Of a stretch of DNA of 64,000 nt, positions 3,408-61,806 are shown one piece after another. The position numbers and the translations under genes are program-made. Each line of letters opens with the position of its first letter. Within the stretch, counting starts at the first letter, position 1. The stretch is from positions 321,453 through 385,452 of the forward strand of contig JAHIVW010000003.1 in NCBI GenBank assembly GCA_018816245.1, in the 5' to 3' direction. Origin of the DNA: Nanobdellota archaeon (GTDB lineage: Archaea; Aenigmatarchaeota; Aenigmatarchaeia; QMZP01). Below the pieces are notes generated by a model that saw nothing but the letters and a program-made list of their open reading frames with translations, had not been told where the DNA came from and ran no database searches.

Positions 3408-3959
3408 ATGCACATCAGTTTGCGTTCCAATTTCAGGACACAGAAGCTGGCCATATTCATCGTCAGTGCGATCATTACAGTTGTGATCATGACGACTCCC
3501 TGGTTCCAGGAGAGCTTACTCTCGCTCGGTGATCTTGGCCACATTGGTGCCTTCATCATCGGCTTCTTCTTCTCCTATGGCATGACCACCATTCCTGCCA
3601 TCGCTGCTTTTACTATCCTCGCCAAGACCATGAATCCATTTCTCCTCGCGCTTGTTGGTGCCTTTGGCGCAGTCCTCTCAGATTACCTCATTTTTCACAT
3701 TGTCAGGGACGATATTGTGACGATGGCCAAGATGAAGGCCTGGCGCATCCGAATCCATCCGAAATGGCACCTGATCCTGCACCTCCGCAAGCTGGCCCCC
3801 CTCCTTGGCGGGTTGATTCTTGCCTCACCGCTTCCGGACGAGGTTGCCATGGCAGTCTTCGGGGTAGGCCACCTCAAAAACAAGATGTGGCTTGCAATCA
3901 CCTTTACTGCGAAATTCTTCGCCATCCTCGTCATTGCGCTTGCTGCTCCCTTCTTCTAA
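3408..3959 (+). CDS. Integral membrane protein, function unknown
   Basis: 183-aa ORF with about 5 hydrophobic helices. No diagnostic motif recognised. Confidence 0.5.
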   Translation: MHISLRSNFRTQKLAIFIVSAIITVVIMTTPWFQESLLSLGDLGHIGAFIIGFFFSYGMTTIPAIAAFTILAKTMNPFLLALVGAFGAVLSDYLIFHIVRDDIVTMAKMKAWRIRIHPKWHLILHLRKLAPLLGGLILASPLPDEVAMAVFGVGHLKNKMWLAITFTAKFFAILVIALAAPFF

Positions 3960-31490: not shown

Positions 31491-31604
31491 GCACAACCCC
31501 GGATGTGCTTTATTGGGTGCGAACGTTTATATCTGCTTTGATGGAGAGGAACATAACACCGTTATACATCCAAGACACCATATTTAAACCTTGATACCCA
31601 CAGC

Positions 31605-43963: not shown

Positions 43964-44902
43964 TTATTTTTTCTCGGGAGTGAGTTCAAGAAGGTTCTGC
44001 TGCGGCGGTTCCTGCTGCTTTTCTTGAAGAGGGATTGATTTTCCAGTCCAGGTTAGCCTGTTCGTCCTTCCTGCCTTTTCCTTCTTGATCAGGCCGCGGG
44101 CCTCGAGCTTCTTCACGATCCTCGTCATCTTGGCCCGGGAGAACCCGAACTGCCGTTCAATCTTGTTCTGGTAGACGATCTTTGTTTTCTGGACAGCAAC
44201 AATCACCTTGCGTTCATCTTCAAAGAAGGAGAGCAGGAACTGGCTTCGGTGCCGGCGGCGGAGGAAGAAGATGACCGCCACAAGGATACCGATCCCCGCG
44301 GCTGCGGCGAGGATGAGCAGGAACGAGTCTTGCAGGGGAATGCCGCTCTCGAACTGAATCGAAAAGAACTGGGTGCCCTTCGGATCTGTGATCGTCCAGG
44401 TGTACCCAATTTGTTCACCATCTGACACCGGTGTCCCGCTGCCAGGAAAGACACTATTCCCAACAGCAACATAGCCTTTGGGGAGATACGCAGTAACATG
44501 CAAAGTCGTGACTCCGGACGGTGGAGAAAAGGGAAATGTGAACACAAATCCTTCATCATTGGAGAACAGCACGTCTGATGTGGAAAATGAAAGCAGGATA
44601 TCATGGGTTCCCGCCGCTGCAGGGAAGGTCATGGTTGTGAGCCCGTCGTTCCTCGTAATTGTTGGTTCAATGGGTTGGTTGTCGACCAGGATTACCAGAT
44701 TTGTCACCGCCCCATTCACATCATACGAGAGTTCACGGGACTCAGGAAGAGGTTCTGTCAAGAGAATGTGAATTGTTTCCTCTGCCGTGTCAGTGGTGAG
44801 GTCAAACATGATCTCGTACGTGGTGATCGGTAGGGCGCGTCCCTGCGGAATGAGGGAGAGTATGACGAGAAGCGCGATCACGATGCTGATTCTCCTCTTC
44901 AT
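43964..44902 (-). CDS. Membrane-anchored winged-helix regulator with extracellular sensor-like domain (COG2512-like architecture)
   Basis: A signal peptide, a ~190-aa extracytoplasmic beta-rich domain, one TM helix (FLLILAAAAGIGILVAVIFFL), then a cytoplasmic wHTH (FSRAKMTRIVKKLEARGLIKKEKAGRTNRL). Confidence 0.65.
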   Translation of the reverse strand: MKRRISIVIALLVILSLIPQGRALPITTYEIMFDLTTDTAEETIHILLTEPLPESRELSYDVNGAVTNLVILVDNQPIEPTITRNDGLTTMTFPAAAGTHDILLSFSTSDVLFSNDEGFVFTFPFSPPSGVTTLHVTAYLPKGYVAVGNSVFPGSGTPVSDGEQIGYTWTITDPKGTQFFSIQFESGIPLQDSFLLILAAAAGIGILVAVIFFLRRRHRSQFLLSFFEDERKVIVAVQKTKIVYQNKIERQFGFSRAKMTRIVKKLEARGLIKKEKAGRTNRLTWTGKSIPLQEKQQEPPQQNLLELTPEKK

Positions 44903-46386: not shown

Positions 46387-46463
46387 AGCTATCTCCTTTA
46401 CCACTTATTAATGGTTAAAATAAACAATATCCTTATAAAGATTTGCCCATGAGAAAGATTGAC

Positions 46464-46478
46464 AATAACAATGTTATA
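46464..46478. repeat. Palindrome family copy 1 (AATAACAATGTTATA), flanked by direct ATTGAC repeats
   Basis: Arms ATAACA/TGTTAT. ATTGAC occurs at 46458-46463 and 46479-46484. Confidence 0.7.
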
Positions 46479-46494
46479 ATTGACCCAGACAAAC

Positions 46495-46502
46495 TTTAAA
46501 TA
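46495..46502 (+). promoter_or_regulatory. TATA-like TTTAAATA ahead of leader A
   Basis: The same octamer occurs at the equivalent place of unit B (complement of 58764-58771). Confidence 0.35.
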
Positions 46503-46529
46503 CTCATTGGTTCTATTACTGTCATCATA

Positions 46530-46890
46530 AAGTAGTGATTAATGATCATCAACCAATCGACTATCCCCTGGTGCGTCCACACGATGTGCCTTTCCCCATA
46601 CCAGAAACCTGTCCGTGACGGATCCGTCAGCGCTTCTTGAGCGCTGAAAACGCGCGGAGCGTGGTTTCGAGCACGGGAGCGGGAGCTCGGTTGACACCAT
46701 ACACTGACCGATGTGGGGCTGTCTTTCGTCGGTCTTGGGTTTTTACGCCTTCTGATTAGAAGGCAGGATACACGTTTGTGTATCCGCGTCCCGGGGGCGA
46801 CAGGATGGTGCACCAGAATGTCGTCCGTCTCAAGCCGGGACCGGATATTCTTCTCGCCAGTGGACTTGAGACATTGGAAAGGAGGCTCCG
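46530..46890 (+). other. Leader A: GC-rich, hairpin-packed non-coding region (candidate structured RNA or long 5' UTR)
   Basis: There is no credible ORF. Perfect hairpins or palindromes lie at 46616-46629, 46628-46646, 46747-46764 and 46766-46785. It ends in GGAAAGGAGG immediately before the ATG at 46891. Confidence 0.35.
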
Positions 46891-47148
46891 ATGTTGGAGT
46901 TTTTCGTCTATCTGTTCACAGTGGTTGGGATCATCTCGACCGCGATCTACGTCCTGCACAGGAAGGAGATCAACGCTGCTCTCAAGAAGCCTCAGGTTCC
47001 CCAGGGGTCGACGACACCTGCGACTCCTAAGGCACCCGAGGACCCGATGACGAAGCTCACGGAAACCCTTGAGCAAGTCGTCAAGCGGGTCGAGACGCTC
47101 GAGGCCACCGCCAAAAATCCGAAGAGCACAGGAGGTGGTGGATCATGA
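46891..47148 (+). CDS. Small membrane-anchored protein (85 aa)
   Basis: Strong SD (GGAGG 6 nt upstream). An N-terminal TM helix, then a Pro/Thr-rich linker and a helical tail. There is a 4-nt overlap with the next ORF. Confidence 0.45.
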   Translation: MLEFFVYLFTVVGIISTAIYVLHRKEINAALKKPQVPQGSTTPATPKAPEDPMTKLTETLEQVVKRVETLEATAKNPKSTGGGGS

Positions 47149-47816
47149 AGACCGTCATTATCGTTCTGGCAGTCCTCGCCATCAGCGCAGTGCTCTTCGT
47201 TGCCTTCGGCGGTGCCGGCCTCAACTTGGGGAAGGTCAACCCGAACCTGTTTGGTGGTGACAAGGCGCCTCTGACGAAGGGTACCCGGTATCCCCTGGCC
47301 AGCCATGTCAAGCTCTACGGAGCAGACATGGTGAACGAGGCGGAAGTGAAGACGATCTTGGAGTCCCGGGCGACCACCGACGACATCACGAACTTGCGAA
47401 AGCTCGTGATGAGGGGGGATCTGGACACAACTACTCGAGCAACAATCGAGAAGATGGTCGGCAGCTCCTACCTCCAGAACGCCAAGGATGCCACAAGCGT
47501 TGGGTTCGCGGTGACGGGGGACGACGGCAACCTAGTCGCCATCTCCGTTGGCGAACGCGACCCACTCCGCCTGATCGTCTACTACCTACTCGTCTCCTCC
47601 GACAAGATGATCGTCTATGATCCGGGAGAGGACGTGCCGGTAGGTACGAGGGGTGACCTTGGCATGGGCCTTATCACCCCGGCCGCCCGTCCTACGGCTG
47701 TCCGGTGGGTGAATGGTGCGGCCATATGTGGTACCCTGAACGCCGTCCCCGTGAGGGAGCATACGAGTATCTTCACCACAATTGACCTGACGACGGACAA
47801 GGTCAAGGGACCCTGA
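47145..47816 (+). CDS. Secreted/anchored hypothetical protein (223 aa)
   Basis: N-terminal hydrophobic helix MKTVIIVLAVLAISAVLFVAF. No motif recognised. The composition is GC-rich. Confidence 0.5.
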   Translation: MKTVIIVLAVLAISAVLFVAFGGAGLNLGKVNPNLFGGDKAPLTKGTRYPLASHVKLYGADMVNEAEVKTILESRATTDDITNLRKLVMRGDLDTTTRATIEKMVGSSYLQNAKDATSVGFAVTGDDGNLVAISVGERDPLRLIVYYLLVSSDKMIVYDPGEDVPVGTRGDLGMGLITPAARPTAVRWVNGAAICGTLNAVPVREHTSIFTTIDLTTDKVKGP

Positions 47817-47831
47817 TCTCGTCCCCAACCC

Positions 47832-47879
47832 GTCGGCGCGACACGCATGGAAAGTGCCGCGCCGACTTCTTTTCTTTTC
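47832..47879 (+). terminator. Hairpin plus T-run terminator-like element
   Basis: A 9-bp stem GTCGGCGCG/CGCGCCGAC (47832-47840 and 47858-47866) is followed by TTCTTTTCTTTTC (47867-47879). Confidence 0.5.
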
Positions 47880-47881
47880 AT

Positions 47882-47900
47882 AATATAACAGTGTTATATT
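47882..47900. repeat. Palindrome family copy 2 (AATATAACAGTGTTATATT, 9-nt arms)
   Basis: Perfect palindrome around a central G. It lies between convergent gene ends and is followed by GAAAGAAC. Confidence 0.8.
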
Positions 47901-47921: not shown

Positions 47922-50900
47922 TCAAACAATTTCTTGAAACGCCTTCAGGATTTTATCATCATCAAGAGGTGTACTTAACCACTGTTCGTACGCTTTCTTG
48001 CAATTATCCGGGTTTCCGCTATCTTCCAAACAACAGACACCAAGATCTCCTGAAGTTGTGGAAATGGTTTTGCATGCAAGACCTTCTAATGAATTACCAC
48101 CAAGATCGTATTTCGTTACTTGATCACAGTCTGCATCAGCACCTAGGAGTGTTTTGTCACATCCTCCTGCACCAAGACGACAGCCACTCTTCGTCTGCTC
48201 TTTGTACGCTTCGCAATATCCTGGTTTGCCAAAGAGTGAACTCAAACCAGTTATCCCATTCGACGACGTCCCGTTCCCAAAGTCCCCGCAAATGTTGTTG
48301 TTGCACGTCTGCCCGAACGCCGCATACGGGCAGTCGTTCGTCGTTTCGCAGCAGGTCACCCCGCCGAACTCCACCTTCTCGTTCACGGTCTTGGTCTGCG
48401 CAAAGATGTAGTCCGCGTGCGCCCGGACCTGGAACGTCTGCGTCGGGATGTTCTTGTTTCCAAAGGTAAATCGATCCTGGAAGTAGCAGAAGATCGTTGT
48501 CATGCCCTGGGGAATGTTTTCCGGTTTCCATGTATAGGTGGTCGCTGTTGCGCCAGGCGTCGTGGCAAACTTGTTGTTCGTGCAGCTCTTGATTTCCCCA
48601 AGCGCGTTGGGAATGATCAACTGGATCTGCGCGCTCTCGATCTGGGAGCTTGTGGACGCCTGGTATTTCTGCACAGGAACGAGCGACAAACCAATGAACA
48701 GCGGGGTCTTCTCCCGGATCGGTTGTTCAAGGGTGTCGAGGTTCAACTGGACCGGCGCATTGGTGAACGTCGATGCTTTCTTCGTTTGTGTGACAAGTTT
48801 TCCGTCCGCAACCAGGCGATCCCACTCGCCCTGGCTGATGAGCTCCACATCAATGCTGGAGTCGATTTGATACGGATACGTAACCGTGATGTTGAACGGA
48901 ATGTAGAAATTCCGAAGATCTATGTTTGATGTGATTCTCTTGGCACCAATGCCGCCAGCAAGTTTGTTCGCAATTTCGTCGAGGATGTGTTTTGCGCCAA
49001 TCATCTCCGAACAGGAAAACCCATTACTCTGGAAGAATCCCTGGCGGATATCCAGCTTGGTCATGGTTTCAGGAGTTGTGCCGCTGGGCTGCTGGTACGA
49101 GCCAACGGCACCGCCAGGGAAGGGAACGTAAGGGTAATGGACAACCTGATAGCAGGGTTCATCCTTGCTTGTTTGTTGCTGATGATCAACGCCGTCTTTG
49201 TCAATGCATACTTCTTCTCGTTCGGTAGCGTTGAACCCGAACTGGCTGATAGGAACCGTGACCCGGGTGAAGTCGATCTTCCCTCCTGAATCGGAAAACT
49301 TCATGTTGCTCGTTAACGTGACGTTGACATTGCTCGTCTCGAACGCCCCGGAATTCTTCAGTTTGTACACGATCGAGAAAGGTTGGCCTGGAAAGATCGG
49401 CGTGACGTCTATTTTGCCATCAAACTCCACACCGAGCGCTCCTTTTAACCCGGTCGTGGGATCAGTCGCATACGTGCCGTTGAGGATTTGTTGTGTATAT
49501 CCAATGGGATTCGTCAGTAAGAAGACTGCTTGGCCTAACGTGTTGCCAAGTTGCATCATCACTTCTGCTAATGGTTCTGTTAATTCAGCCACGCCGTTGT
49601 GCACGGTGGGCCACCACTGTCCTAACAGTCCGCTGCCAATGTCCTGCGATCCTGGTCCGATACCATAGATGACCGTGGCAGCGCCAAGCATGATCAGCCC
49701 TGCCTCTGGCCGGGCTGCCCGCGATGAAAAGAGTCCTGCGATAAATGAGACAAACCAGAAGTAGAGGAACGTTGCCCGAAGCGTGCCGGTGAGTTCCCAT
49801 CCAGGGCCAAAGGTGAAGAGTGGTGACACAACATTCAGCGCTCCGGAACCCAGCAAAGCAATAAACATCAAACCCACGAAAAGAGCTTTGTCGAACATTG
49901 CGCCAAATTCGCCAGTCGCTGCCTCTTCACTGCTCTCTGTTCCTTTCTTTGATCGCTCCACCGGCGGAACAGCGAAGAAGGCGAGCGCAAGGATTGCAAG
50001 AACATTCGAGTTGAAAATTGTCCCAAACAGGTAGAACGGAATCAAGTAACATCCGAGGATGAGAAATCTCATCAGTGATTCGATTCGTTCGCCAGGAATA
50101 TCAGGATCGTACGCTGTCTTGAGTGAGAAATACCCACCAAGACAAACAATGAGGAAGGCGATGTTGAACGGTCCTCCGAGCGCGCGGAACCCGAAGGCGA
50201 ACAGGGTGATCGCGGAAATCTTGAAAAAACTTCGCATCCAGCCGAACGTGGCATGGGATCGCCCGTCGCTTAACGGATTCATCATCTGGTACCAGATGTT
50301 TTTTCCTTTGTAGAGGTTGCCCTCTTGCGGCGCAGGGGTGACAAAATAGAAGCCAATTGCGAAAAATGCAAACATGAACCAGATCTGGCCGAGCAGGGCC
50401 GACATGGTGATCCCAAGCGCAGCAGCAGCAATTAAATAGAATCCTTTTTGGATGACGCTTTCCCCGTACCGGCGAACGGTCCAGGGTTTTTTGTACGATT
50501 CTTTCAGTTCTTTCAACTTGTCATCAATTTCTTCTTCGTATTGTTTGCTATCACGTTTGAATTGCTCTTCGATTTCCTTTCGCCGTTCATCTAAATCCTT
50601 TTTCGCATCTTGAAAATAATCTTGGGTAATATGACCTCCATTCAATTGATTCTGTAATTTGGTAAGTAAGCCATCAACGTTACGCAGTTCTCGATCACGA
50701 CGAACGCCTGGAAGATCATTCCATTTTTCATGGAGGTTTCTCGTTCTCTCAAGTAAAAGGTTCCGCTGTTGTTGGATATCAGCACGAAGATCCGGATCTG
50801 TTGTTCTTCGAAAACGGTTACCCAGCTCAATACCATGGGTTCGCAGCTGGTCGAGTTCTCTCTTTATTCGCTGCCGCGCAACAAGATGATCACGCTCTGC

Positions 50901-51518
50901 CTTGAGGTCTTTTCTTCGTTGCTTATACTGTTCCCGGACCGGGGCACCGGAGAAGATTCCCGCTGCCTTTCCCTTTTTTTGCTGCTTCTTCACTTGCGCA
51001 GGACTTAATTTTCTTCCTGCATCTCGAAACCCGCGTCGAGTTGCATCCCAATGAGTTGGACAACGCCTATTCAAACAAAAAAACGTCTCTTTTCCTTCAG
51101 TTGAAACGAGCGTGTGCAAGCGTTCCAAACCGCACCACGGACACACAATATCAGAAACCACGCTACTGATTTCGCCACGAAGGATGCGCACTTCGTGTCG
51201 TTTCTTTTCACGCTCCTTTCCTTCAGCACCATAAATGTCCTCGTAAATACCCTGAATTGCTTCCCGGAGTTCTTTCCCAGAAAGATGCCTTGTTTCTTCC
51301 CGAATGCGGCGATCAACTTGTCTGTTTTTTTCTTGCCGCTCAAAAATGGTCCATGCTGATTCTGGTCCCGGACCCGCAACACCAGGCGGCCAGTGGAAAT
51401 CTCCTTCAGGACAGACCACTTCAACCATCCGCTGGCCGGTTCCCGCGACCTTGGATTCGTAGATTTTGAGCTTGCCATGAGCTGAATTAACAGGACATTT
51501 GAGTTCTTTTTCAGCCAA
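47922..51518 (-). CDS. Giant membrane protein (1198 aa): cytoplasmic zinc ribbons plus coiled coil, polytopic core, large extracellular domain with Cys-rich tail
   Basis: The N-terminus has CP...CP and CPWC...C....CP motifs, followed by a long K/R/E-rich helical region. About ten hydrophobic segments lie in the middle. The C-terminal ~560 aa are beta-rich and end in a tail with about 13 Cys. Confidence 0.7.
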   Translation of the reverse strand: MAEKELKCPVNSAHGKLKIYESKVAGTGQRMVEVVCPEGDFHWPPGVAGPGPESAWTIFERQEKNRQVDRRIREETRHLSGKELREAIQGIYEDIYGAEGKEREKKRHEVRILRGEISSVVSDIVCPWCGLERLHTLVSTEGKETFFCLNRRCPTHWDATRRGFRDAGRKLSPAQVKKQQKKGKAAGIFSGAPVREQYKQRRKDLKAERDHLVARQRIKRELDQLRTHGIELGNRFRRTTDPDLRADIQQQRNLLLERTRNLHEKWNDLPGVRRDRELRNVDGLLTKLQNQLNGGHITQDYFQDAKKDLDERRKEIEEQFKRDSKQYEEEIDDKLKELKESYKKPWTVRRYGESVIQKGFYLIAAAALGITMSALLGQIWFMFAFFAIGFYFVTPAPQEGNLYKGKNIWYQMMNPLSDGRSHATFGWMRSFFKISAITLFAFGFRALGGPFNIAFLIVCLGGYFSLKTAYDPDIPGERIESLMRFLILGCYLIPFYLFGTIFNSNVLAILALAFFAVPPVERSKKGTESSEEAATGEFGAMFDKALFVGLMFIALLGSGALNVVSPLFTFGPGWELTGTLRATFLYFWFVSFIAGLFSSRAARPEAGLIMLGAATVIYGIGPGSQDIGSGLLGQWWPTVHNGVAELTEPLAEVMMQLGNTLGQAVFLLTNPIGYTQQILNGTYATDPTTGLKGALGVEFDGKIDVTPIFPGQPFSIVYKLKNSGAFETSNVNVTLTSNMKFSDSGGKIDFTRVTVPISQFGFNATEREEVCIDKDGVDHQQQTSKDEPCYQVVHYPYVPFPGGAVGSYQQPSGTTPETMTKLDIRQGFFQSNGFSCSEMIGAKHILDEIANKLAGGIGAKRITSNIDLRNFYIPFNITVTYPYQIDSSIDVELISQGEWDRLVADGKLVTQTKKASTFTNAPVQLNLDTLEQPIREKTPLFIGLSLVPVQKYQASTSSQIESAQIQLIIPNALGEIKSCTNNKFATTPGATATTYTWKPENIPQGMTTIFCYFQDRFTFGNKNIPTQTFQVRAHADYIFAQTKTVNEKVEFGGVTCCETTNDCPYAAFGQTCNNNICGDFGNGTSSNGITGLSSLFGKPGYCEAYKEQTKSGCRLGAGGCDKTLLGADADCDQVTKYDLGGNSLEGLACKTISTTSGDLGVCCLEDSGNPDNCKKAYEQWLSTPLDDDKILKAFQEIV

Positions 51519-51559: not shown

Positions 51560-52678
51560 TCAGGCCTTCTGGAGGAGCACGGACGCGTCCCCAATTTCCC
51601 AGTTTCCGGTCCCCGAGAAGATCAGGGTGTTTTTCCCTTCCTGCACGTCAGCAGCGCCAAACGTCACGGTATTCTGCCCCTTCACCACGGACGACAGCTG
51701 GAATTCCTTGTCGTTCAGCGTGACCGATAGGGCACCGTTCTTGAGAATCTCATCAACATTGTAGACCAGCACCACATTAGCGTGCCCGTCCGCAACCTGC
51801 TTGGCCTGTTCCTGCGTCAAATCGAACGTCTTGGCCTTTGACAGCTCGCTCGTCAGGAGGAAGATGTTCAGCTGTCCGCCGCCAATCGTGGTCACGCCGG
51901 TCGAGGAAAAGGTGAGCGTGTTCGTCCCCACCTTGAGCGAAACATCAGTCAGCTCAAACGGGATCTCTTCCACTCCAGTTGGTGCACCAGAGAAGAGCTG
52001 CTGGCCATTCACATTGATTGCCAGGAGCCCGCTGCCTGACCCGAAGAATGACAACTCGCCCCGGTCAAAGGTGGCAAGCTCTGAGGAAAAGAGTTCGAAC
52101 GGGAAGATCCGGTCAGGACCATAATCAAGCTCCACTTTCACGTTCTTCAGCACGTAGACGGTCTGCGCCCAGAAGTACAGGCCAGGACCATCTGTGGTGA
52201 ATTCGAGGGTGTTCACGTTCTTGACCACGTCCTTGTCCAGAGTGAGCGACAGTGGCCCGGGGTTCGGATAGCCTGAATACACGGTCACGCCGTTCCACAG
52301 CACGTTCAGTTTCCCGTAATTGTTCGTGTCAAAGACTGAGAACGTGACGCGCACGTTCCGGGTTGTGTCTTCAAAGGCCTTGGGAACGACAATACTCATT
52401 TCCTCTTTCCGTTCGCCACTCAGCCCCTTGGTGACTTCAAGTTGCAAGATGCTCTTCAAGGTTTCGAACTGGGATTCCCCGACTGTGAAGGTTCCCAGGG
52501 TGAGTGACTTCGACGGGAGATTCTGGGAAAAGCCAACTGACCCGACGGTGAACGAGGCGATTGTGGTTTCCTCAACATCCTGGCCCGTGGTGGTCACGAA
52601 CACCGAGGCAACAGCAAAGACAACGAGAATGAGAATCGCGGCTGCGAGGATGTACATGAAGTCATCTGTCCCGCGCAT
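51560..52678 (-). CDS. N-terminally anchored secreted protein with three lectin/LamG-like repeats (372 aa)
   Basis: The start at the ATG at 52678 (MRGTDDFMYILAAAILILVVFAV) leaves a TATA-containing gap to the divergent pelota gene. Three segments follow the pattern L.V..NG...(15-25 aa)...G.NTL.F...G. Confidence 0.6.
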   Translation of the reverse strand: MRGTDDFMYILAAAILILVVFAVASVFVTTTGQDVEETTIASFTVGSVGFSQNLPSKSLTLGTFTVGESQFETLKSILQLEVTKGLSGERKEEMSIVVPKAFEDTTRNVRVTFSVFDTNNYGKLNVLWNGVTVYSGYPNPGPLSLTLDKDVVKNVNTLEFTTDGPGLYFWAQTVYVLKNVKVELDYGPDRIFPFELFSSELATFDRGELSFFGSGSGLLAINVNGQQLFSGAPTGVEEIPFELTDVSLKVGTNTLTFSSTGVTTIGGGQLNIFLLTSELSKAKTFDLTQEQAKQVADGHANVVLVYNVDEILKNGALSVTLNDKEFQLSSVVKGQNTVTFGAADVQEGKNTLIFSGTGNWEIGDASVLLQKA

Positions 52679-52730
52679 ACTATTCTTTTTTGTGAAGAAT
52701 CCATATAAAGCGGCACGGTGAAGCCTTCTC

Positions 52731-53753
52731 ATGATCGTCACGAAGAAGGACCTGAAGGCAGGGACGCTCTCGGTCACCTTGCAGGCTGCGGACGATCTGT
52801 GGCACCTCTCCCATATCATGGAGCCCGGGGACCTCGTGACCGCGAAGACCCTCCGGACGACCACGATCAAACAGGGCGCTGAATTCAAGAAAGGGGACAA
52901 GGTGCCGATGATCTTGACAATCAGGCTCGAGAAGCTTGAGTTCACCGAGGGGTCTGAGGCACTCCGACTTTCTGGAACAATCGAGCAAGGACCAGAAGAC
53001 GTCCAGCTGCATTCGTACCATACGCTGACCATTGAGGTGCGGTCCCACCTGACGATCCAGAAATCATGGAACGGCTACCAGCTCGACCGGATCGAGCGGT
53101 CGCGGATCAAGCAGCCGCTGCTCGTTGTTGTTGCGATCGACCGGGACGAGGCAACGGTTGCTCTTCTACGGGAATCAGGAATTGAATGGAAAGCAAGTCT
53201 GCAGTGCAAAGGAAAGAAGGACATCAAGGACGAAGGTGATCGTGAAGCATTCCACAAACAGATTGCCGCGGTGTTGCAAGAGCAGCCTGCTGACGTCAAG
53301 GCAATTGTGCTCGCAGGTCCGGGATTTGAGAAAGACCACGTCCAGGACTACTTGAAAAAAAATACTCCCGAGCTCGGCGAAAAAACCGTTACGGAAAAAG
53401 CCGCAGATGCTGGACGCCACGGGGTTCAAGAAGTCGTGCAGCAGAGCTCGCAGCGCATCCTGAAGGAGACGCGGATCGCGAAAGAAACCGGCTACTTGAA
53501 GATTTTCTTCACGGAGTTGCGGAAAGAGGGACTCGTAGTGTACGGACCGAAGGAAACGCAAAAGGCGCTCGAGTACGGCGCAGTTGAATTGTTGCTGGTG
53601 TCGGAACACAAAATCAAGGACTTTGACGCGCAGTTGCAGCAAGCAGAGAAAACAGGTGCGACCATCAAGTTCGTGTCCGCAGATCACGAAGCAGGGGAGC
53701 AGTTCTTGGCGCTTGGTGGTATTGGCGGGATTTTGCGGTACAAGGTGCACTAG
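52731..53753 (+). CDS. pelA: Pelota (aPelota/Dom34) ribosome rescue factor
   Basis: MIVTKKDLKAGTLSVTLQAADDLWHLSHIMEPGDLV and an eRF1-like C-terminal domain. Confidence 0.93.
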   Translation: MIVTKKDLKAGTLSVTLQAADDLWHLSHIMEPGDLVTAKTLRTTTIKQGAEFKKGDKVPMILTIRLEKLEFTEGSEALRLSGTIEQGPEDVQLHSYHTLTIEVRSHLTIQKSWNGYQLDRIERSRIKQPLLVVVAIDRDEATVALLRESGIEWKASLQCKGKKDIKDEGDREAFHKQIAAVLQEQPADVKAIVLAGPGFEKDHVQDYLKKNTPELGEKTVTEKAADAGRHGVQEVVQQSSQRILKETRIAKETGYLKIFFTELRKEGLVVYGPKETQKALEYGAVELLLVSEHKIKDFDAQLQQAEKTGATIKFVSADHEAGEQFLALGGIGGILRYKVH

Positions 53754-57172: not shown

Positions 57173-57190
57173 GGGTTTTGGTTTTCCTAT

Positions 57191-57205
57191 TATAACAGTG
57201 TTATA
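57191..57205. repeat. Palindrome family copy 3 (TATAACAGTGTTATA)
   Basis: Perfect copy between the convergent mcm and rnp1 ends. It has a T-rich left flank and an A-rich right flank (AAGAAAAAAGAAAAGAAC). Confidence 0.8.
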
Positions 57206-57224
57206 TTAAGAAAAAAGAAAAGAA

Positions 57225-57581
57225 CTACCAATTGATATGCCGTTTCTTGATCCGGTCTTCTGGGCGCCCTACGAGCAATTTACCATCAACCCGAACCCAC
57301 TGCCCTGCGGGCACGCGGAAGGAGAAGGTGCTCTGGTCCTTGACGTAGTTCTTGAGCTGACCTTCGATGTCCACGGTGAGGGTGTTCCGGGACTCATCAA
57401 CGACAGTACCTGAATCCCCGATGAAGTTGTGGTTGGTTCGATCAAGCATGCGGACGCCCAAGCCGACGAGCTCGTGCTGGAGGATGTGCTCGGGGATGCG
57501 CAGGGCGGCGGCGATGGCAGCTCGCTTCTCTTTCTTCGGAATAGCCATTTTTGCGACCATAGTATTCGACGGTGCTAACAT
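57225..57581 (-). CDS. rnp1: RNase P protein component 1 (Rpp29/Pop4)
   Basis: LVGLGVRMLDRTNHNFIGDSGTVVDESRNTLTV...VRVDGKLLVGRPEDRIKKR. The start may be the internal MVAKM. Confidence 0.85.
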   Translation of the reverse strand: MLAPSNTMVAKMAIPKKEKRAAIAAALRIPEHILQHELVGLGVRMLDRTNHNFIGDSGTVVDESRNTLTVDIEGQLKNYVKDQSTFSFRVPAGQWVRVDGKLLVGRPEDRIKKRHINW

Positions 57582-57613
57582 GAGAGCCTTCTATTGGGAG
57601 CGGAGATTTATAA

Positions 57614-57655
57614 GATAACGGTGTTAATTTGGTATGATGATATAACGGTGTTATA
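57614..57655. repeat. Palindrome family copies 4a (GATAACGGTGTTAAT, degenerate) and 4b (TATAACGGTGTTATA)
   Basis: Copy 4a is at 57614-57628 and copy 4b at 57641-57655. Copy 4b is followed by TTGAAAAGAAC. Confidence 0.7.
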
Positions 57656-57656
57656 T

Positions 57657-57698
57657 TGAAAAGAACCCAGAGCACGCGAGAAGGTCTCACGCACTCTG
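57657..57698 (-). terminator. Imperfect hairpin plus TTCTTTTC terminator-like element after the 57720-58418 ORF
   Basis: On the minus strand the sequence reads CAGAGTGCGTGAGACCTTCTCGCGTGCTCTG, then GGTTCTTTTC, then palindrome 4b. Confidence 0.4.
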
Positions 57699-57719
57699 AG
57701 TTGTCGGCGACGTGGCCGG

Positions 57720-58418
57720 CTAGTCCTCGTCTTCGAGGTCCGTCTCAGGGATCGGAGGCATCATGAAGTGCACTGTATGGGATCTGATATGCTGCTCCAC
57801 GAAGTGTGAGAACAGGGCGATGCCGCACCTGAGATCGCGCTCCCTGAGCAGCTGGATGATTCCCGCGAAGATCAGTTGCCCCGTGGCGTCGGGGTGCCGC
57901 ATGATCTGCTGGATGTCCCGGCATGCCTCCTCGCTGAGCTGACGCTGGTTCCCTCGCTCCATGTCGCCGACGGACTTGAAGAGATCAGTGAGGTTGATCG
58001 GGAGCGGAGCGTACGGCGCCAGGAGCTCGGTCATGAGGGAGAACTCGGCTACCTCATCAAGGATGTCTGGAGTAACACCGAGGCAGTGGTTCACGATGGT
58101 GGGTAGTGTTGCTCCCTCACGCCTGTATTTATCCACCATACCTGTCACACGCTTCCTGAGTTCGTTCCGCTTGTCGCTCCAGTCGGCGCGATTGAATCCC
58201 TCCACTTGAATGGGAAGCTCGTTCTCAGTGCGTTTCTTGAGGCCGACCGTTGAGAACCAGATGCTGAGGAGGTGCTCTGATTCCTCGGTATGGGCGTCAT
58301 CGCCGTTGACGACCTCTGCCGCGGCCTGTTCCCAAGACCCGTTCTGCCAGATGTCTTCGGTTCTGATGATCAGGTCGAGTTCGAGCTCTCTCTCACGTAA
58401 CGTTTTCTTCGCTGCCAT
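57720..58418 (-). CDS. Hypothetical acidic protein (232 aa)
   Basis: Long ORF with a purine-rich GGGAGGAAGAAAGGAAA upstream of the ATG. No motif recognised. Confidence 0.5.
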   Translation of the reverse strand: MAAKKTLRERELELDLIIRTEDIWQNGSWEQAAAEVVNGDDAHTEESEHLLSIWFSTVGLKKRTENELPIQVEGFNRADWSDKRNELRKRVTGMVDKYRREGATLPTIVNHCLGVTPDILDEVAEFSLMTELLAPYAPLPINLTDLFKSVGDMERGNQRQLSEEACRDIQQIMRHPDATGQLIFAGIIQLLRERDLRCGIALFSHFVEQHIRSHTVHFMMPPIPETDLEDED

Positions 58419-58763
58419 TTGGCGTTTCCTTTCTTCCTCCCAGAACAGAAAACCCGGCAGTGTAGGAGGGAGTGCTGCCGGTGTTGTGTGATTAGTTCAG
58501 AATAGGTTGATTCTCGTTGGGAAGACGAGCGTCACTATAAGGGTGTCTTTGGGGGTAAACGCGGATTTCGTCGGGGGTTTCATTAATTGGCCTCCTCTCC
58601 AATGCGAGACTGTCGAAAGACAGTCTCAAGACGACAAAATTCGTCCACCACTCGCGCTCCCGCTCCTCTTGGTGACGTGCGTGCATTTCTGGATTCTGCA
58701 ACGTTCTTGCGGAACGTGGGAACTGGTGATGTGAGTTGTGAACTTACGAGTTAGTAGTGGAAT
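58419..58763 (-). other. Leader B: GC-rich hairpin-rich non-coding region homologous to leader A
   Basis: Hairpins at 58454-58481 and 58606-58627 (9-bp stem; GAAA loop on the plus strand, TTTC in the leader sense). Three collinear blocks are identical to leader A (see findings). The only ORF here (58492-58701) has no counterpart in leader A. Confidence 0.35.
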
Positions 58764-58771
58764 TATTTAAA
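58764..58771 (-). promoter_or_regulatory. TATA-like TTTAAATA (minus strand) ahead of leader B
   Basis: The plus strand reads TATTTAAA. This is the same octamer and relative position as in unit A. Confidence 0.35.
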
Positions 58772-58851
58772 CCTTATCCCGGCCCGTTCCTTGGCAAACC
58801 ATTAAATGTCCAGATGATTCTTAGGAAAGAGGTACCAGAAAGAACTCTTAG

Positions 58852-58865
58852 TATAACAGTGTTAT
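58852..58865. repeat. Palindrome family copy 5 (TATAACAGTGTTAT)
   Basis: Preceded by AGAAAGAAC. Its last bases contribute the AT of the helicase ATG at 58864. Confidence 0.75.
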
Positions 58866-61806
58866 GGCCCCCTTCCCCCTCTTCAAAAAGCAACTCGGAA
58901 CCCTCGCCCAGGAGCGCTTCTCTTCCCCGACCGAGGTCCAGCAGGCGACGTTCCCGCTTATCCACGAAGGCAAGAACGCTCTCGTGATCGCAGAAACCGG
59001 CTCTGGAAAAACCGAAGCTGTCCTCCTTCCCTTCTTCGACCGCATGCTCCGCGACCGCGGACGCCCGTTCCAGCTCCTCTATATCACCCCGTTGCGAAGC
59101 CTCAACCGCGACCTGCTTTCCCGCGTGCTCTGGTGGGCCAACCGCCTTGACTTCACGGTCTCGGTCCGCCACGGCGACACGAGCCAGTACGAGCGCTCCA
59201 TGCAGGCAGCCAACCCCGCAGACATGCTCATCGTCACTCCCGAAACCCTCCAGGCCATCCTGGTAGGAAAGGTCCTCCGCACCCACCTTGCGAACGTCCG
59301 CTTCGTGGTCATTGACGAAGCCCACGAACTTCCAGACAGCAAGCGCGGCACCCAGCTTGCGGTCGGTCTGGAACGACTCAAAGCGCTCATCACGGAATAC
59401 GGCAACCCGTCCCCGCAACTCGTCGGCATCTCTGCAACCGTCGGCTCCCCAACAATCGTTTCCTCGTTTTTGGCCGGCAGCTCTGACCCGCTCACGGTCA
59501 TCACTGCAGACCGGCACAAGGAATTCTCCATCACGGTCGATGAGCCGGTTCCCACCCAGGATGATCACGAAGTCGGCAACCGCTTGTACGTCGGCCCCGG
59601 CGTCGCGGCGCGCATCCGCACCATGCACAATCTGATCAAAACACATGCACCAGTGCTCAGTTTCACCAACACAAGAGAAGCAGCAGAGGTCCTCGCTTCG
59701 CGTCTGAAAACACTTGACCCTGAACTCGGTGTTGAAACGCATCATTCTTCACTTTCACGAGACGTGCGCATCAGTGCAGAACAACGGTTCAAGGACAATG
59801 AACTCGCTGCCTTGATCTGTACCTCAAGTCTGGAATTAGGCATCGACATCGGTCACGTTGATCTCGTGCTCCAATACCTTTCCCCACGCCAGGCAGTCAA
59901 GCTCGCGCAACGCGTGGGTCGTGCTGGTCACCGACATGATAAGGTTTCACGCGGCGTTGTTCTGACACAAGACACCGAGGACGGCTTCGAAGCAGCAGTG
60001 ATTGCCAAGCGGACCCTGGAAGGCTGGGTGGAGCCAACCATCCTCCGCGAACAATCGCTCGATGTTCTTGCACACCAGCTTATCGGGCTCACCCTTGAAC
60101 GAAAGGACATCACCTTCCTCGATGCGTACACGATTCTCAAACGAGCCTACCCGTACCGGAACTTGTCCGCAGACGACTTGTTCGATGTCGCCAGATTCAT
60201 GATGCGATTACGACTCCTCCGCATCGAGGATCCTGCGCATCCCATGCCGTGGCAGCGACCAAAGACGCAAGAAGATCTTGACGCGCAACACCACATCAAG
60301 CCGCTTGAAGAGAAACCAACCGTCTTCACGCCGCGGCCAGCACTCAAGAAGAAAAATGATTTAACCCTCCACCGAAAGCTCCCAAGCTGGGAATACTACT
60401 ACACGAATCTCTCGACCATTCCGGACAGCAAGAACGTGCAGCTGTTCGACGTCGTGAATCACGCCCCGGTCGGGTCCCTGGACGCGGAATTCGTTTCTCT
60501 GTACGCACAACCTGGTGCAACGATTATCACCAAAGGAACTCCCTGGCGCGTGTTAGAAACCCGTGATCACCGCGTCAGCGTGGAGCCGGCATCCGGCATC
60601 AAGGCAGCCATTCCTGCATGGCAAGGTGAACTCATTCCTGTTCACTTCGAGATTGCCCAGGACGTTGGCAAACTCCGGCGGCTGATTGCAGAAACACTTG
60701 ACAACAACGAAGATCCGATTTCATTTCTAACAACAACCTATCCGGTCACCAAACAAATCGCCAAGGACATGGTGTCCTTGATCAAGAAACAGCGAAAGAA
60801 GGGGATCCTTCCTGACGACAAGACAATTGTGATTGACCGCTGCGAGGACAAGCTGGTCATCCACTTCTGTGGCGGGTCGTTGGTCAACGATACCCTCGGT
60901 CGCGCACTCTCTGTCTTGTTAACCGGAAAGATCGGCACCATTGGCCTGCAAACCGATCCCTATCGTATCATTCTTACCGTGTCACCAGAATATGCAGAAC
61001 GCATAAAAACTGAGTTAACCAAGCTCACCACAAAAACGTTCCAGGATGTGCTTCACCTTGCCCTTGAAAAAACTGATTTGTTCTTCCTCCGCTTTGCGCA
61101 CGTTGCGAAACGGTTCGGCATCATTTCCCGCGATGCAGACATCATGAAAGCGCAGCTCCGGCGCATTGTCCAGCGGTTCGACGGCTCCCCGGTGTATCGG
61201 GAAACATTCAACGAGCTCCGTGACAAGTTCGATGTTGATCAAGCAATCGACGTCTTGCAAAACATCCGCGAAGGAACGTATCCGATCATCATCAATGAAG
61301 GTATGAGTCCGCTCGCACGGTTCGGTGTCTCCCGGAAAACCGAACTCGTGGCAACAGAAAAACCAGAATCAGAAATATTTGCGCTCTTCAAGAAACGGTT
61401 GTTAGGAACACGGATCGGGTTGCTGTGCTGCCAATGCAACACCTGGGGCACGATCACCACCGCAGAAGAGGTTTCACAGCAACCGGTGTGCAAGAAATGC
61501 CAGGCACGGCTCATCGCGATTGTCCCTCGTGACCGTTACACCTTCGCGCATTCCTTACTCGAAAAAAACCGACAGGGAAAACCGCTTTCTGGAGAAGAAA
61601 AGAAAGAAGTGGAAACCATGTTCGCGTCTGCAAGCCTCGTGATCGACCACGGCTATGAAGCAGTTCGTGCGCTCGCCGGTCGCGGCCTCGGGCCGAAAAC
61701 CGCAGCACGCGTGCTCTCCAAACTCCTCCATGGCGACGACCTGCTGCACGACATCCTCGACGCAGAGCGCCAGTTCGTGAAGACCAGGCAATTCTGGAAG
61801 GGGTAG
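58864..61806 (+). CDS. lhr: Lhr-like large ATP-dependent DEAD/DEAH-box helicase
   Basis: PTEVQQATFPLIHEGKNALVIAETGSGKTEA, VIDEAHEL, SATVG and VGRAGH motifs. The long C-terminal domain has a CCQC...CKKC zinc motif. Confidence 0.92.
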   Translation: MAPFPLFKKQLGTLAQERFSSPTEVQQATFPLIHEGKNALVIAETGSGKTEAVLLPFFDRMLRDRGRPFQLLYITPLRSLNRDLLSRVLWWANRLDFTVSVRHGDTSQYERSMQAANPADMLIVTPETLQAILVGKVLRTHLANVRFVVIDEAHELPDSKRGTQLAVGLERLKALITEYGNPSPQLVGISATVGSPTIVSSFLAGSSDPLTVITADRHKEFSITVDEPVPTQDDHEVGNRLYVGPGVAARIRTMHNLIKTHAPVLSFTNTREAAEVLASRLKTLDPELGVETHHSSLSRDVRISAEQRFKDNELAALICTSSLELGIDIGHVDLVLQYLSPRQAVKLAQRVGRAGHRHDKVSRGVVLTQDTEDGFEAAVIAKRTLEGWVEPTILREQSLDVLAHQLIGLTLERKDITFLDAYTILKRAYPYRNLSADDLFDVARFMMRLRLLRIEDPAHPMPWQRPKTQEDLDAQHHIKPLEEKPTVFTPRPALKKKNDLTLHRKLPSWEYYYTNLSTIPDSKNVQLFDVVNHAPVGSLDAEFVSLYAQPGATIITKGTPWRVLETRDHRVSVEPASGIKAAIPAWQGELIPVHFEIAQDVGKLRRLIAETLDNNEDPISFLTTTYPVTKQIAKDMVSLIKKQRKKGILPDDKTIVIDRCEDKLVIHFCGGSLVNDTLGRALSVLLTGKIGTIGLQTDPYRIILTVSPEYAERIKTELTKLTTKTFQDVLHLALEKTDLFFLRFAHVAKRFGIISRDADIMKAQLRRIVQRFDGSPVYRETFNELRDKFDVDQAIDVLQNIREGTYPIIINEGMSPLARFGVSRKTELVATEKPESEIFALFKKRLLGTRIGLLCCQCNTWGTITTAEEVSQQPVCKKCQARLIAIVPRDRYTFAHSLLEKNRQGKPLSGEEKKEVETMFASASLVIDHGYEAVRALAGRGLGPKTAARVLSKLLHGDDLLHDILDAERQFVKTRQFWKG

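Follow-up and report, generated by a model that had tools for sequence, protein, structure and literature searches.

Several dimeric operators have been described in archaea, including the TGM of the Thermococcales (TATCAC-N5-GTGATA), which is bound by TrmBL1/Tgr, and the SurR site (GTTn3AAC). The bacterial REP/BIME elements are also short extragenic palindromes, imperfect and typically 20–40 bp long, which are often located at convergent 3′ ends beside terminators and occur in many copies per genome together with a RAYT transposase. Integron cassettes carry variable, unrelated cargo together with a 3′ palindromic element, the 57–141-bp attC site with its extrahelical bases, and differ in presence between relatives; their tandem arrays of promoterless ORFs are accompanied by IntI, attI and a common Pc promoter. 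At the RNA level, leaders such as the MS2 replicase operator and the RNA thermometers sequester the ribosome-binding site (RBS) in a hairpin.

Features reminiscent of each of these systems are found in the 64-kb stretch of DNA analysed here (64,000 nucleotides; hereafter the window), which comes from the chromosome of an uncultured DPANN archaeon labelled “Nanoarchaeota archaeon” by NCBI. The first-pass annotation of this DNA had described two palindrome-bounded units, A and B, which share a promoter box, a long leader and a terminator design but carry unrelated ORFs, and had likened them to a cassette or mobile-module system. The reading that we favour, and to which we give about an even chance of being correct, is that the units are self-contained accessory transcription units with lineage-specific orphan cargo and that the palindrome is an operator-like motif and not a terminus. 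Judging from the sequence comparisons below, the two units would represent an accessory-gene hotspot and not a demonstrated mobile cassette system.

The palindrome and its seven sites

The palindrome TATAAC-N3-GTTATA (15 bp) is present at seven sites in the window, all of them intergenic; six are recovered by pattern and the seventh is a degenerate copy at 57614. Scanning the window with TATAACANNGTTATA and up to two mismatches gives 12 strand-matches, that is six sites, compared with 0.20 expected. The four unit-flanking palindromes of the first-pass annotation (46464–46478 and 47884–47898 for unit A, 57641–57655 and 58852–58866 for unit B) are all present, but three more sites, at 31552, 57191 and the degenerate 57614, had been overlooked.

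Four of the seven palindromes are located at promoters. CATAACACCGTTATA (31552–31566) lies in the divergent promoter region of a DJ-1/PfpI gene and a 145-aa ORF, just downstream of the DJ-1 TATA box and 14 nt from an exact copy of the box TTTAAATA (31581–31588, minus strand), the third in the window. Between the divergent promoters of unit A and a 124-aa ORF, AATAACAATGTTATA (46464–46478) is upstream of both TATA boxes, by 16 nt for unit A and by ~24 nt for the minus-strand ORF, whose box is TTTATAAGG. The degenerate ATTAACACCGTTATC (minus strand, 57614–57628) abuts the TATA box TTATAAAT (57613–57606) of the RNase P/MRP p29 gene. TATAACAGTGTTATG (58852–58866) falls in the interval from the presumed TATA box of the Lhr helicase gene to its start codon and overlaps the ATG.

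The copies at promoters are imperfect, while the three perfect ones lie right after oligo-T terminators, between the 3′ ends of tandem or convergent genes. TATAACAGTGTTATA is found twice, at 47884–47898 where the 3′ ends of unit A and a 1198-aa ORF converge, and at 57191–57205 where those of MCM and RNase P p29 do so; TTCTTTTCTTTTTTCTTAA precedes the latter copy on the p29 strand. TATAACACCGTTATA (minus strand, 57641–57655) is located directly 3′ of the unit B terminator, 27 nt from the degenerate p29 copy, and the centre of both is ACC.

The core ATAAC-N3-GTTAT is kept at all seven sites and the spacer is variable. The central triplet differs among the sites of the window, between orthologous sites of the window and a related genome (L011, discussed below), and between the two palindromes that flank each unit (AAT/AGT in unit A, AGT/GGT in unit B). 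This variability fits the spacer of a dimer-binding site. Dyad symmetry, conserved arms and a free spacer, the hallmarks of an operator, are thus found together, and the palindrome, a lineage-conserved intergenic motif, is most likely the site bound by a dimeric DNA-binding protein. A MarR/DUF7343-like winged-helix protein (43964–44902) is the only candidate encoded nearby for the cognate protein.

Like the archaeal dimeric operators, the palindrome is a short, AT-rich dyad in which the arms, of 6 bp each, are conserved and the spacer is not. Four of the seven copies are at promoters, in positions that include overlap with the BRE/TATA and the interval between TATA box and start, and two of these four are kept in L011. 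The palindrome differs from the known operators in its sequence and in the three perfect copies after terminators, where no promoter is expected. With the REP/BIME elements it shares its extragenic location, its placement at convergent 3′ ends beside terminators and its occurrence at several loci. On the other hand, it is shorter (15 bp), the host is an archaeon, and some of the copies are embedded in promoters and positionally conserved between genomes; no RAYT/TnpA-like gene was found in the window. Replication-origin ORB repeats and a dif site were also considered and were rejected, because multiple copies are distributed across 12 kb and the spacer measures 3 nt.

Besides the units, the palindrome marks p29, Lhr, DJ-1 and the 3′ end of MCM, and so is not unit-specific; Lhr, p29, DJ-1 and the orphans have no obvious common theme. 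The p29 core gene (57225–57581, minus strand) has a palindrome on both sides, as units A and B do. Its TATA box is ~24 nt upstream of the ATG, a spacing typical of leaderless archaeal mRNA, and the gene appears to be leaderless. It shares its 3′ module with the units, as 57191–57224 and the unit A end are 88% identical over 34 nt, and the unit A and p29 3′ sites make up a 44-nt repeat family, D1. Six of the seven palindromes fall within 12.4 kb, around orphan genes. An ENA contig (L095) that is identical to the window and 7.8 kb longer contains neither further palindromes nor boxes in the additional sequence. Such tight clustering around orphan genes is odd, being unexpected of a general regulatory or boundary motif.

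A protein bound to the promoter palindromes could repress or co-regulate the adjoining genes. Bound to the post-terminator palindromes, it could provide the densely packed genome with a roadblock or insulator, a role for which we know of no archaeal precedent at such sites.

Units A and B and their leaders

Every feature that had been listed for the units was recovered in its place. In both, the order is TTTAAATA, leader, purine-rich RBS, ORF(s), GC hairpin, TTCTTTTC and palindrome, and a purine-rich RBS precedes each of the 85-aa and 223-aa ORFs of unit A and the 232-aa ORF of unit B. Two of these elements are generic signals. TTTAAATA is an archaeal TATA box; it fits the established archaeal consensus, TTTAWATA, and has three exact copies in 64 kb compared with 0.62 expected. 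TTCTTTTC, with 17 occurrences in the window, is an oligo-T terminator. Because a promoter box and a T-tract of this kind are generic to archaea, they cannot define a cassette framework. The T-rich TTCTTTTC tracts at the 3′ ends of the units fit archaeal oligo-T termination, which can do without a GC hairpin in front of the T-tract; both units have one.

Unit A is on the plus strand. Its TATA box (46495–46502) is an exact match to TTTAAATA and is followed by a 388-nt 5′ leader (46503–46890), which is strongly structured (z −4.3 compared with shuffled sequence) and contains perfect hairpins at 46616, 46627, 46747 and 46766. The 85-aa ORF (46891–47148) has an N-terminal transmembrane helix and no family match, and the 223-aa ORF (47145–47816) has an N-terminal membrane anchor. 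The terminator (47832–47879), read directly from the sequence, consists of the hairpin GTCGGCGCG...CGCGCCGAC followed by TTCTTTTCTTTTC.

Unit B is on the minus strand. Its TATA box TTTAAATA (58764–58771) has AAGG in front, as does the copy at 31581, and its 5′ leader is 345 nt long (58763–58419). The 232-aa acidic ORF (57720–58418) is predicted to be all-alpha, and the terminator (57658–57702) is an 18-pair hairpin, G-U pairs included, followed by TTCTTTTC. Archaeal 5′ leaders of 320–365 nt, as in these units, are unusual. The leaders had been described as GC-rich and hairpin-rich. They are not notably GC-rich, having 54% and 51% G+C compared with a window mean of 51%. Of the four perfect hairpins in the window with arms of at least 8 bp, three are in leaders A and B; the folding of leader B is not significant (z −1.45). 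If one coding region is set aside, the longest three perfect hairpins are all within the two leaders.

The leaders share three short boxes. In unit A, the shared segment (46676–46728) is formed by box 1, GGAGCGGGAGC (46676–46686), a gap of 32 nt and box 2, CTGTCTTTCG (46719–46728). In unit B (58590–58666, minus strand), box 1 is at 58666–58656, box 2 at 58623–58614 and box 3 at 58604–58590. Boxes 1 and 2 are exact matches of 11 and 10 nt at identical spacing, a combination with an expectation of 0 in 100 shuffles. Box 3, CATTGGARAGGAGGC, a 15-mer with one R position, is located downstream of box 2 in both units; in unit A it reads CATTGGAAAGGAGGC (46872–46886) and contains the RBS of the 85-aa ORF. 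The order of the boxes is the same in both units, and within the 64 kb all three are confined to these units. An ungapped 64-nt alignment window has 38 identities compared with 31 ± 2.2 in controls, and none of the 372 genuine controls reaches 38.

The shared patch is ~85 nt long in unit B, and in unit A a ~143-nt insert precedes box 3. Outside the boxes, identity is low in a MAFFT alignment, and 14 of 567 random segments of the window score at least as well as the leaders under stringent local alignment. Properly aligned, the leaders prove to be partly related, through boxes 1–3, and the proposed kinship of the units is not refuted on this count. The leader homology appears real but small, and the two units probably have a common regulatory leader.

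The placement of box 3 suggests what such a leader might do. In unit A, its RBS is displayed in the 8-nt loop of a predicted 9-bp hairpin (−10.1 kcal/mol, z −2.9) with the AUG inside the 3′ arm. The predicted fold in unit B has a similar topology, although the hairpin is weak and thermodynamically marginal (−3.8 kcal/mol); box 2 of this unit is inside a perfect 9-bp hairpin (58606–58627). By analogy, this arrangement resembles the RBS-sequestering leaders, in which the RBS is held in a loop and the start codon is in or next to the 3′ arm, and the pyrimidine-rich box 2 (CUUUC) could pair with the purine-rich box 1 or 3. It differs from them in that there are only two examples, one with a marginal hairpin, and no Rfam match: a tRNA is the sole Rfam match in the window and nothing with E < 0.4 is found in either unit. 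Box 1, the 32-nt gap, box 2 and the RBS-displaying hairpin may thus form a cis-regulatory leader, derived by duplication or from a common origin, which would place both units under one control, probably translational.

Leader B also contains a hypothetical 28-codon ORF (58497–58583, minus strand) with box 3 in front and its own RBS; consequently, the untranslated part is shorter than had been supposed. The ATG of this ORF overlaps the TAA of a 22-codon frame (TAATG). A 22-codon frame is present in both leaders; it begins 4 nt downstream of box 1, and the two stop codons coincide in the alignment. A conserved leader peptide is nevertheless unsupported, as 5 of the 22 residues are shared and the mismatches by codon position are 15, 10 and 11, with two copies only.

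The relative without unit B and the orphan cargo

A related genome, L011 (GCA_964373515.1), is syntenic with the window, and MCM, p29 and Lhr align at 65–72% DNA identity. In this genome, Lhr and p29 are divergent neighbours 158 nt apart and unit B is absent, so the comparison of synteny that had been suggested for the units does reveal a presence/absence difference. Both genes have their palindromes nonetheless: TATAACACTGCAAT-ATG at Lhr is orthologous to palindrome 58852, and AAAACAGTGTTAT abutting TTTTATAAAT at p29 is orthologous to palindrome 57614. The palindrome is therefore older than the units. In addition, the distance of CGGGCCGGGA from the Lhr ATG is 77 nt here and 80 nt in L011, and the “left” palindrome of unit B (58852), along with ~75 adjoining nt, appears to be ancestral. 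The block that is present in the window and absent in L011 extends from ~58776, just before the unit B TATA box, to palindrome 57641 and ends 12 nt from the resident p29 palindrome, with the ACC centre in both. Where palindrome 57191 stands alone in the window, L011 has a VapBC toxin-antitoxin pair.

A Logan contig, L001, matches unit B at 99.86% identity and switches exactly at the centre of palindrome 58852 to an unrelated sequence containing a truncated VRR-NUC gene. The position of this junction hints at breakage or recombination at the palindrome.

The absence of similarity that had been noted between the 223-aa and 232-aa proteins is borne out (BLASTP E 0.72), and the cargo has no family in Pfam, PHROGs, PADLOC or NCBIfam. 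A search of 5.8 billion protein clusters with the 232-aa protein returned only a self-match, and the neighbouring 1198-aa protein is likewise an orphan in the protein clusters. An exhaustive HMMER search with the 223-aa protein identified one distant relative, P0097, with 32% identity. The P0097 gene is on a small contig, adjoins an HNH endonuclease gene and is preceded by ~280 nt of GC-rich, hairpin-rich non-coding DNA; with its further matches to BrnT toxin and GP88, the contig looks like a mobile element. The cargo has no matches in phage and plasmid collections (tblastn, blastn), and the 223-aa family has no relatives in IMG/VR. AlphaFold models of both cargo proteins (pLDDT 43 and 47) are too poor for a fold search. 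A foreign base composition of the units is ruled out by the GC3 of the cargo (0.71–0.76), which is similar to that of the neighbouring genes.

The earlier statement that the window has no recombinase is upheld, as none of the large window ORFs has an integrase or transposase match in Pfam; the gene calls of the extra 7.8 kb of L095 include no integrase or transposase either. Further copies of the units were not found in genome, metagenome or viral scans, nor in the window or its 7.8-kb extension. The box 1–box 2 pattern has nine bacterial matches in the GTDB genomes (a collection without the source genome), which is about the number expected by chance, and none in IMG/VR. The combination of terminator and palindrome was matched at 81 metagenome loci, all unrelated and without the source contig among them. 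No target-site duplication is present at the units beyond the palindrome itself.

Accessory units, mobile modules or coincidence

The most conservative alternative is that the resemblance of the units is coincidental, the units being ordinary genes with a typical archaeal layout, a locally common operator and chance RBS-like boxes. The stringent alignment score, the low identity in the rest of the leaders, the GGAG-rich, RBS-like character of boxes 1 and 3, the insignificant structure of leader B and the lack of a coding signature in the 22-codon frame are all in accord with this. It has to contend with two exact boxes whose joint spacing is not expected in shuffled sequence, with a third box in the same order that is restricted to the two units, with an ungapped identity unmatched by the genuine controls and with the concentration of the longest perfect hairpins in the leaders, and we regard it as rather unlikely. 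The units could also be decayed virus or plasmid fragments, with the hairpin-rich stretches as remnants of replication or packaging signals instead of mRNA leaders. The cargo does consist of orphans, the P0097 contig combines HNH, GP88 and BrnT matches with hairpin-rich non-coding DNA before the gene, and the perfect Watson-Crick palindromes of leader A could form equally well in DNA. However, phage and plasmid collections, IMG/VR and PHROGs gave no matches, the GC3 is that of the neighbouring host genes, and replication, integrase and capsid genes are absent; the units are 10 kb apart with core genes (MCM, Pelota and p29) between them, and the G-U pairs in the unit B terminator point to selection on the sense strand at the RNA level. 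This origin seems to us very improbable.

The units may instead be true mobile modules, in which case a recombinase or nuclease encoded elsewhere would use the palindrome as its target or recombination site, and modules of promoter, leader, cargo, terminator and palindrome would insert at or beside resident palindromes, as an archaeal analogue of cassettes. What speaks for this is the lack of unit B in the Lhr-p29 spacer of L011, the end of the missing block 12 nt from a palindrome with the same ACC centre, the leader boxes common to units of unrelated cargo, the mobile-element-like surroundings of the sole relative of the 223-aa protein, the switch of L001 at the centre of palindrome 58852 and the position of six of the seven palindromes around orphan genes. 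Yet neither the window nor the L095 extension encodes an integrase or transposase, and the palindromes of Lhr and p29 were not brought by unit B, being present in the relative without it. The left junction of the inserted block has no palindrome, ~75 nt inside unit B appear ancestral, and the unequal central triplets of each unit are incompatible with a simple exchange by a tyrosine recombinase, whose att or dif sites have an identical central overlap; the orthologous L011 sites differ as well. The essential p29 gene is bracketed by palindromes just as the units are, no more leader copies were found in the GTDB genomes or IMG/VR, and the L001 junction, which truncates a gene, could stem from misassembly or from a rare illegitimate event. 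On balance, this explanation is an unlikely one. It is decidedly doubtful, too, that a nuclease or recombinase acting in trans uses the palindrome as landing pad or breakpoint, with orphan modules, shared leader included, being inserted, swapped or lost as in a promoter-carrying archaeal counterpart of cassettes and with L001 as a captured rearrangement. If the palindrome were such a recombination or breakage site, it would suggest how the numerous orphan genes of DPANN archaea are acquired and shuffled.

The cassette or mobile-module claim of the first-pass annotation is accordingly upheld in part: the leaders are partly related and unit B is an indel, but no recombinase, target-site duplication or further copy was found, and the palindrome is non-specific and partly ancestral. 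Like integron cassettes, the units combine variable, unrelated cargo with a 3′ palindromic element and differ in presence between relatives. Unlike them, each is equipped with a separate promoter and terminator, the palindromic element is a simple 15-mer, and the units are 10 kb apart and inverted instead of forming a tandem array of promoterless ORFs with attC; IntI, attI and a common Pc are absent from the window. The units also differ from MITEs and insertion sequences, as there is no target-site duplication, their interiors share only three short boxes and the left palindrome of unit B is ancestral.

We therefore return to self-contained accessory units with an operator-like palindrome as the preferred reading. 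Both units are complete, from TATA box through long structured leader and RBS-led ORFs to hairpin plus oligo-T terminator, and such units would be gained or lost as accessory genes in spacers that vary among relatives. If this reading is correct, it represents a small gain for annotation: an operator-like motif that is uncharacterised and positionally conserved, and a candidate regulatory leader common to two accessory genes of orphan type, in a DPANN lineage that has been little sampled. The spacers around RNase P p29 emerge as indel hotspots, with unit B here and VapBC in the relative.

Layout of the units and generic signals

At ~51% G+C, the window comes from the chromosome of an uncultured DPANN archaeon. 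It carries the core genes for MCM, the Lhr helicase, RNase P p29, Pelota, FEN1, ArgRS, and the RLI/ABCE1 translation factor, together with pyrimidine biosynthesis genes, pyruvate:ferredoxin oxidoreductase, and glutamine synthetase. The first-pass annotation described two palindrome-bounded units of common design, unit A (46464–47898, plus strand) and unit B (57641–58866, minus strand), and every element it listed has been located where it was placed. The promoter box TTTAAATA is found at 46495 (+) and 58764 (−), purine-rich ribosome-binding sites precede both ORFs of unit A (85 and 223 aa) and the 232-aa ORF of unit B, and each unit closes with a GC hairpin, then TTCTTTTC, then a palindrome. 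The cargo proteins of the two units are unrelated to each other, as had been claimed, and neither an integrase nor a transposase has been detected in the window, which agrees with the reported absence of a recombinase gene. The leaders, between the TATA box and the first main ORF, are indeed long (388 and 345 nt) but, at 54% and 51% G+C, not GC-rich relative to the window. They hold three of the window's four perfect hairpins with arms of at least 8 bp, but against shuffled sequences the fold stands out in leader A (z −4.3) and not in leader B (z −1.45).

Much of this layout recurs outside the units. TTTAAATA fits the archaeal TATA-box consensus, and there are 17 copies of TTCTTTTC in the window; oligo-T tracts of this kind are sites of archaeal RNA polymerase termination. 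Generic archaeal gene punctuation accounts for most of the "shared framework", together with an operator-like palindrome that is conserved in the lineage and found at core genes as well. What truly sets the units apart is a short stretch of leader homology and the unusually strong leader hairpins. In both the window (TATA box 57606–57613, ATG 57581) and the syntenic relative L011 (GCA_964373515.1, region 3499–3537), the p29 TATA box lies ~24–26 nt 5′ of the ATG. This spacing implies that the p29 mRNA would be leaderless, unlike the 320–365-nt leaders of units A and B.

Palindromes at core genes and in relatives

Allowing up to two mismatches, the pattern TATAACANNGTTATA gives 12 strand-matches in the window, corresponding to six sites against 0.20 expected. 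With the degenerate site 57614 there are seven, all intergenic; the palindromes initially listed are real, but three more (31552, 57191, and 57614) had been overlooked. The sites form two classes, imperfect copies at promoters and perfect copies after T-tracts. Among the imperfect copies, 46464 separates the TATA box of unit A from the divergent one of a 124-aa ORF, 57614 abuts the p29 TATA box, and 58852 overlaps the Lhr ATG. The fourth, 31552, is 14 nt downstream of a third exact TTTAAATA directed at a DJ-1/PfpI gene (minus strand), and probably overlaps the transcription start. Of the perfect copies, 47884 and 57191 separate convergent 3′ ends (unit A and a 1198-aa ORF; MCM and p29), and 57641 follows the unit B terminator. 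The p29 gene (57225–57581) is thus bracketed by palindromes just as the two units are, and its 3′ module (TTCTTTTC..AA-TATAACAnnGTTATA) is the window's best match to the unit A 3′ end (88% over 34 nt). The central triplet varies among sites (AAT, AGT, GGT, ACC) and also differs between orthologous sites, which fits the free spacer of a symmetric-dimer site and is unlike partner sites for tyrosine-recombinase strand exchange. The 7.8 kb past the right end of the window contain neither palindrome nor leader boxes.

The synteny of L011 is genuine: its p29 protein is 63% identical, and the MCM, p29, and Lhr DNA is 65–72% identical. Lhr and p29 are divergent neighbours there, 158 nt apart, and the palindrome motif is kept at both orthologous positions, as TATAACACTGCAAT-ATG at Lhr and as AAAACAGTGTTAT fused to the p29 TATA box TTTTATAAAT. 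As a result, palindromes 58852 and 57614 are older than unit B and form part of the Lhr and p29 promoters. In a more distant relative, where p29 (61% identical) sits in a ribosomal-protein cluster, no palindrome site was found in 20 kb.

A block of ~1.15 kb is present in the window and missing from L011. It lies between two conserved stretches, CGGGCCGGGA (at 77 nt from the Lhr ATG here and 80 nt in L011) and a sequence immediately upstream of the p29 palindrome, which reads TCATCATACCAA in the window and TCAAAAATAGGCCAA in L011. The block begins shortly before the TATA box of unit B (about 58776) and ends with palindrome 57641; it has one palindrome at the 3′ end and none at the 5′ junction. 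Since the block is missing in L011, unit B is, on this comparison, an accessory insertion or else a deletion in L011; presence/absence variation of the kind expected of a cassette is thus seen, but palindromes 58852 and 57614 are there without the unit. On the other side of p29, towards MCM, positions 3916–4975 of L011 are taken up by a PIN/MazE (VapBC) toxin-antitoxin pair and one small ORF, while the window has a spacer of just 52 nt (57173–57224) with palindrome 57191. With the unit B block on one side and VapBC on the other, both spacers flanking p29 are indel hotspots.

Two side observations concern this region and this type of motif. The cumulative GC skew is maximal at 57–59 kb, and its sign flips between MCM (+0.14) and Lhr (−0.18), both plus-strand genes, which could be a replication-related switch or noise. 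In human-gut metagenome contigs (L016, L021–L024, L026–L028, L030, and others; G+C about 0.39–0.41), a recurrent bacterial locus has the same palindrome as the window (TATAACAnTGTTATA), repeated in tandem at a distance of 13 nt and present a third time about 1.8–1.9 kb away. It is probably the operator array of an unrelated gut organism.

A leader segment common to both units

When properly aligned, the two leaders are mostly dissimilar, and stringent local alignment is unremarkable, but three boxes occur in both in identical order: box 1 (GGAGCGGGAGC), box 2 (CTGTCTTTCG), and box 3 (CATTGGARAGGAGGC). Each is found nowhere else in the 64 kb, and the gap between boxes 1 and 2 is exactly 32 nt in both units (2 matches against 0 expected). 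The best ungapped 64-nt leader window has 38 identities, compared with 31 ± 2.2 in random window segments, and no genuine control reached 38; one control scoring 64 was set aside, as the segment sampled is taken to overlap leader A. Box 3 serves the first ORF of each unit as ribosome-binding site; in unit A this is the 85-aa ORF, in unit B a 28-codon ORF that had gone unnoticed. The predicted fold places it in an 8-nt hairpin loop in either unit; the hairpin of unit A is strong (−10.1 kcal/mol, z −2.9), that of unit B marginal. Both units have a 22-codon frame that starts 4 nt past box 1 and stops in the same alignment column; the substitution pattern between the two copies carries no coding signature. 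The leaders match no Rfam family. Units A and B probably have a common cis-regulatory leader, as judged from two copies in which neither RNA structure nor peptide is established.

Just 5′ of the 232-aa ORF, at 58425–58490 (−), a 7-bp hairpin holds CUCCCUCC in its loop and is followed by GUUUUCUGUUCU. The loop motif is complementary to the GGGAGG ribosome-binding site downstream, and the hairpin might act in attenuation or mask the ribosome-binding site, although its predicted fold lacks statistical significance (z −0.7).

Cargo proteins and competing readings

The 232-aa protein, listed in NCBI as 'MAG: hypothetical protein KKA90_03145 [Nanoarchaeota archaeon]' from a 555-kb contig, has no relative among 5.8 billion protein clusters. 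The sole relative of the 223-aa protein, P0097, is distant (32% identity, E 2.7e-9). Its gene lies on a 10.9-kb contig with an HNH endonuclease gene directly after it and BrnT-toxin, DUF2958, and weak GP88 matches nearby. It is preceded by ~280 nt of GC-rich, hairpin-rich non-coding DNA (L013 3193–3489) that has no sequence similarity to leader A. AlphaFold models of the cargo proteins are too poor for use.

We give about an even chance to an ordinary explanation, in which the units are self-contained accessory transcription units with generic signals, an operator-like palindrome, and a common regulatory leader. That the leader likeness is pure coincidence, as the overall dissimilarity of the leaders would allow, is unlikely given the ordered boxes and their fixed spacing. 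Somewhat less likely still, the units may be true mobile modules. Several features expected of a mobile cassette were looked for and not found, but the palindrome sites cluster around orphan genes, and one junction falls at a palindrome centre. The latter is seen in L001, an independent Logan contig (SRR10598177) that matches window positions 58866 to 57408 at 99.86% identity. For its first ~88 nt it bears no relation to the window, with the changeover exactly at the centre of palindrome 58852 (58852–58866, compared with L001 1–95; L001 ...gaaCATgacg|ACTGTTATA; window ...ggcCATaac|ACTGTTATA). The foreign side codes for the C-terminal portion of a VRR-NUC nuclease domain (Pfam positions 80–105 of 116, E 5.8e-6); its gene is cut off at the junction, occupies the place of Lhr, and was found neither in the window nor in IMG/VR. 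Across this junction the ENA assembly L095 follows the window with 100% identity, and L001 represents either a minority variant rearranged at the palindrome or an assembly chimera. An origin of the units as virus or plasmid remnants is the least probable reading: the cargo proteins match no defence, phage, plasmid, or NCBIfam families, and their GC3 (0.71–0.76) is like that of the neighbouring DUF63, p29, and NTP-transferase genes, leaving no compositional sign of recent foreign origin.

Two further observations concern genes between units A and B. Pelota lies at 52731–53753 (+), matching the L095 gene calls; the long antisense ORFs that overlap it (51560–53032 by its 5′ end, and 53175–53750) are probably spurious or mis-started, so a mechanical ORF list is misleading at 51560–53753. 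The 1198-aa ORF adjoining unit A (47922–51518, minus strand) has no Pfam or NCBIfam match and no relative in the 5.8 billion protein clusters. Its product has zinc-ribbon-like motifs at the N-terminus, a multi-pass membrane region, and a C-terminus rich in Cys; the ORF is not confined to this assembly, as a 266-kb JGI contig carries it together with an identical p29.
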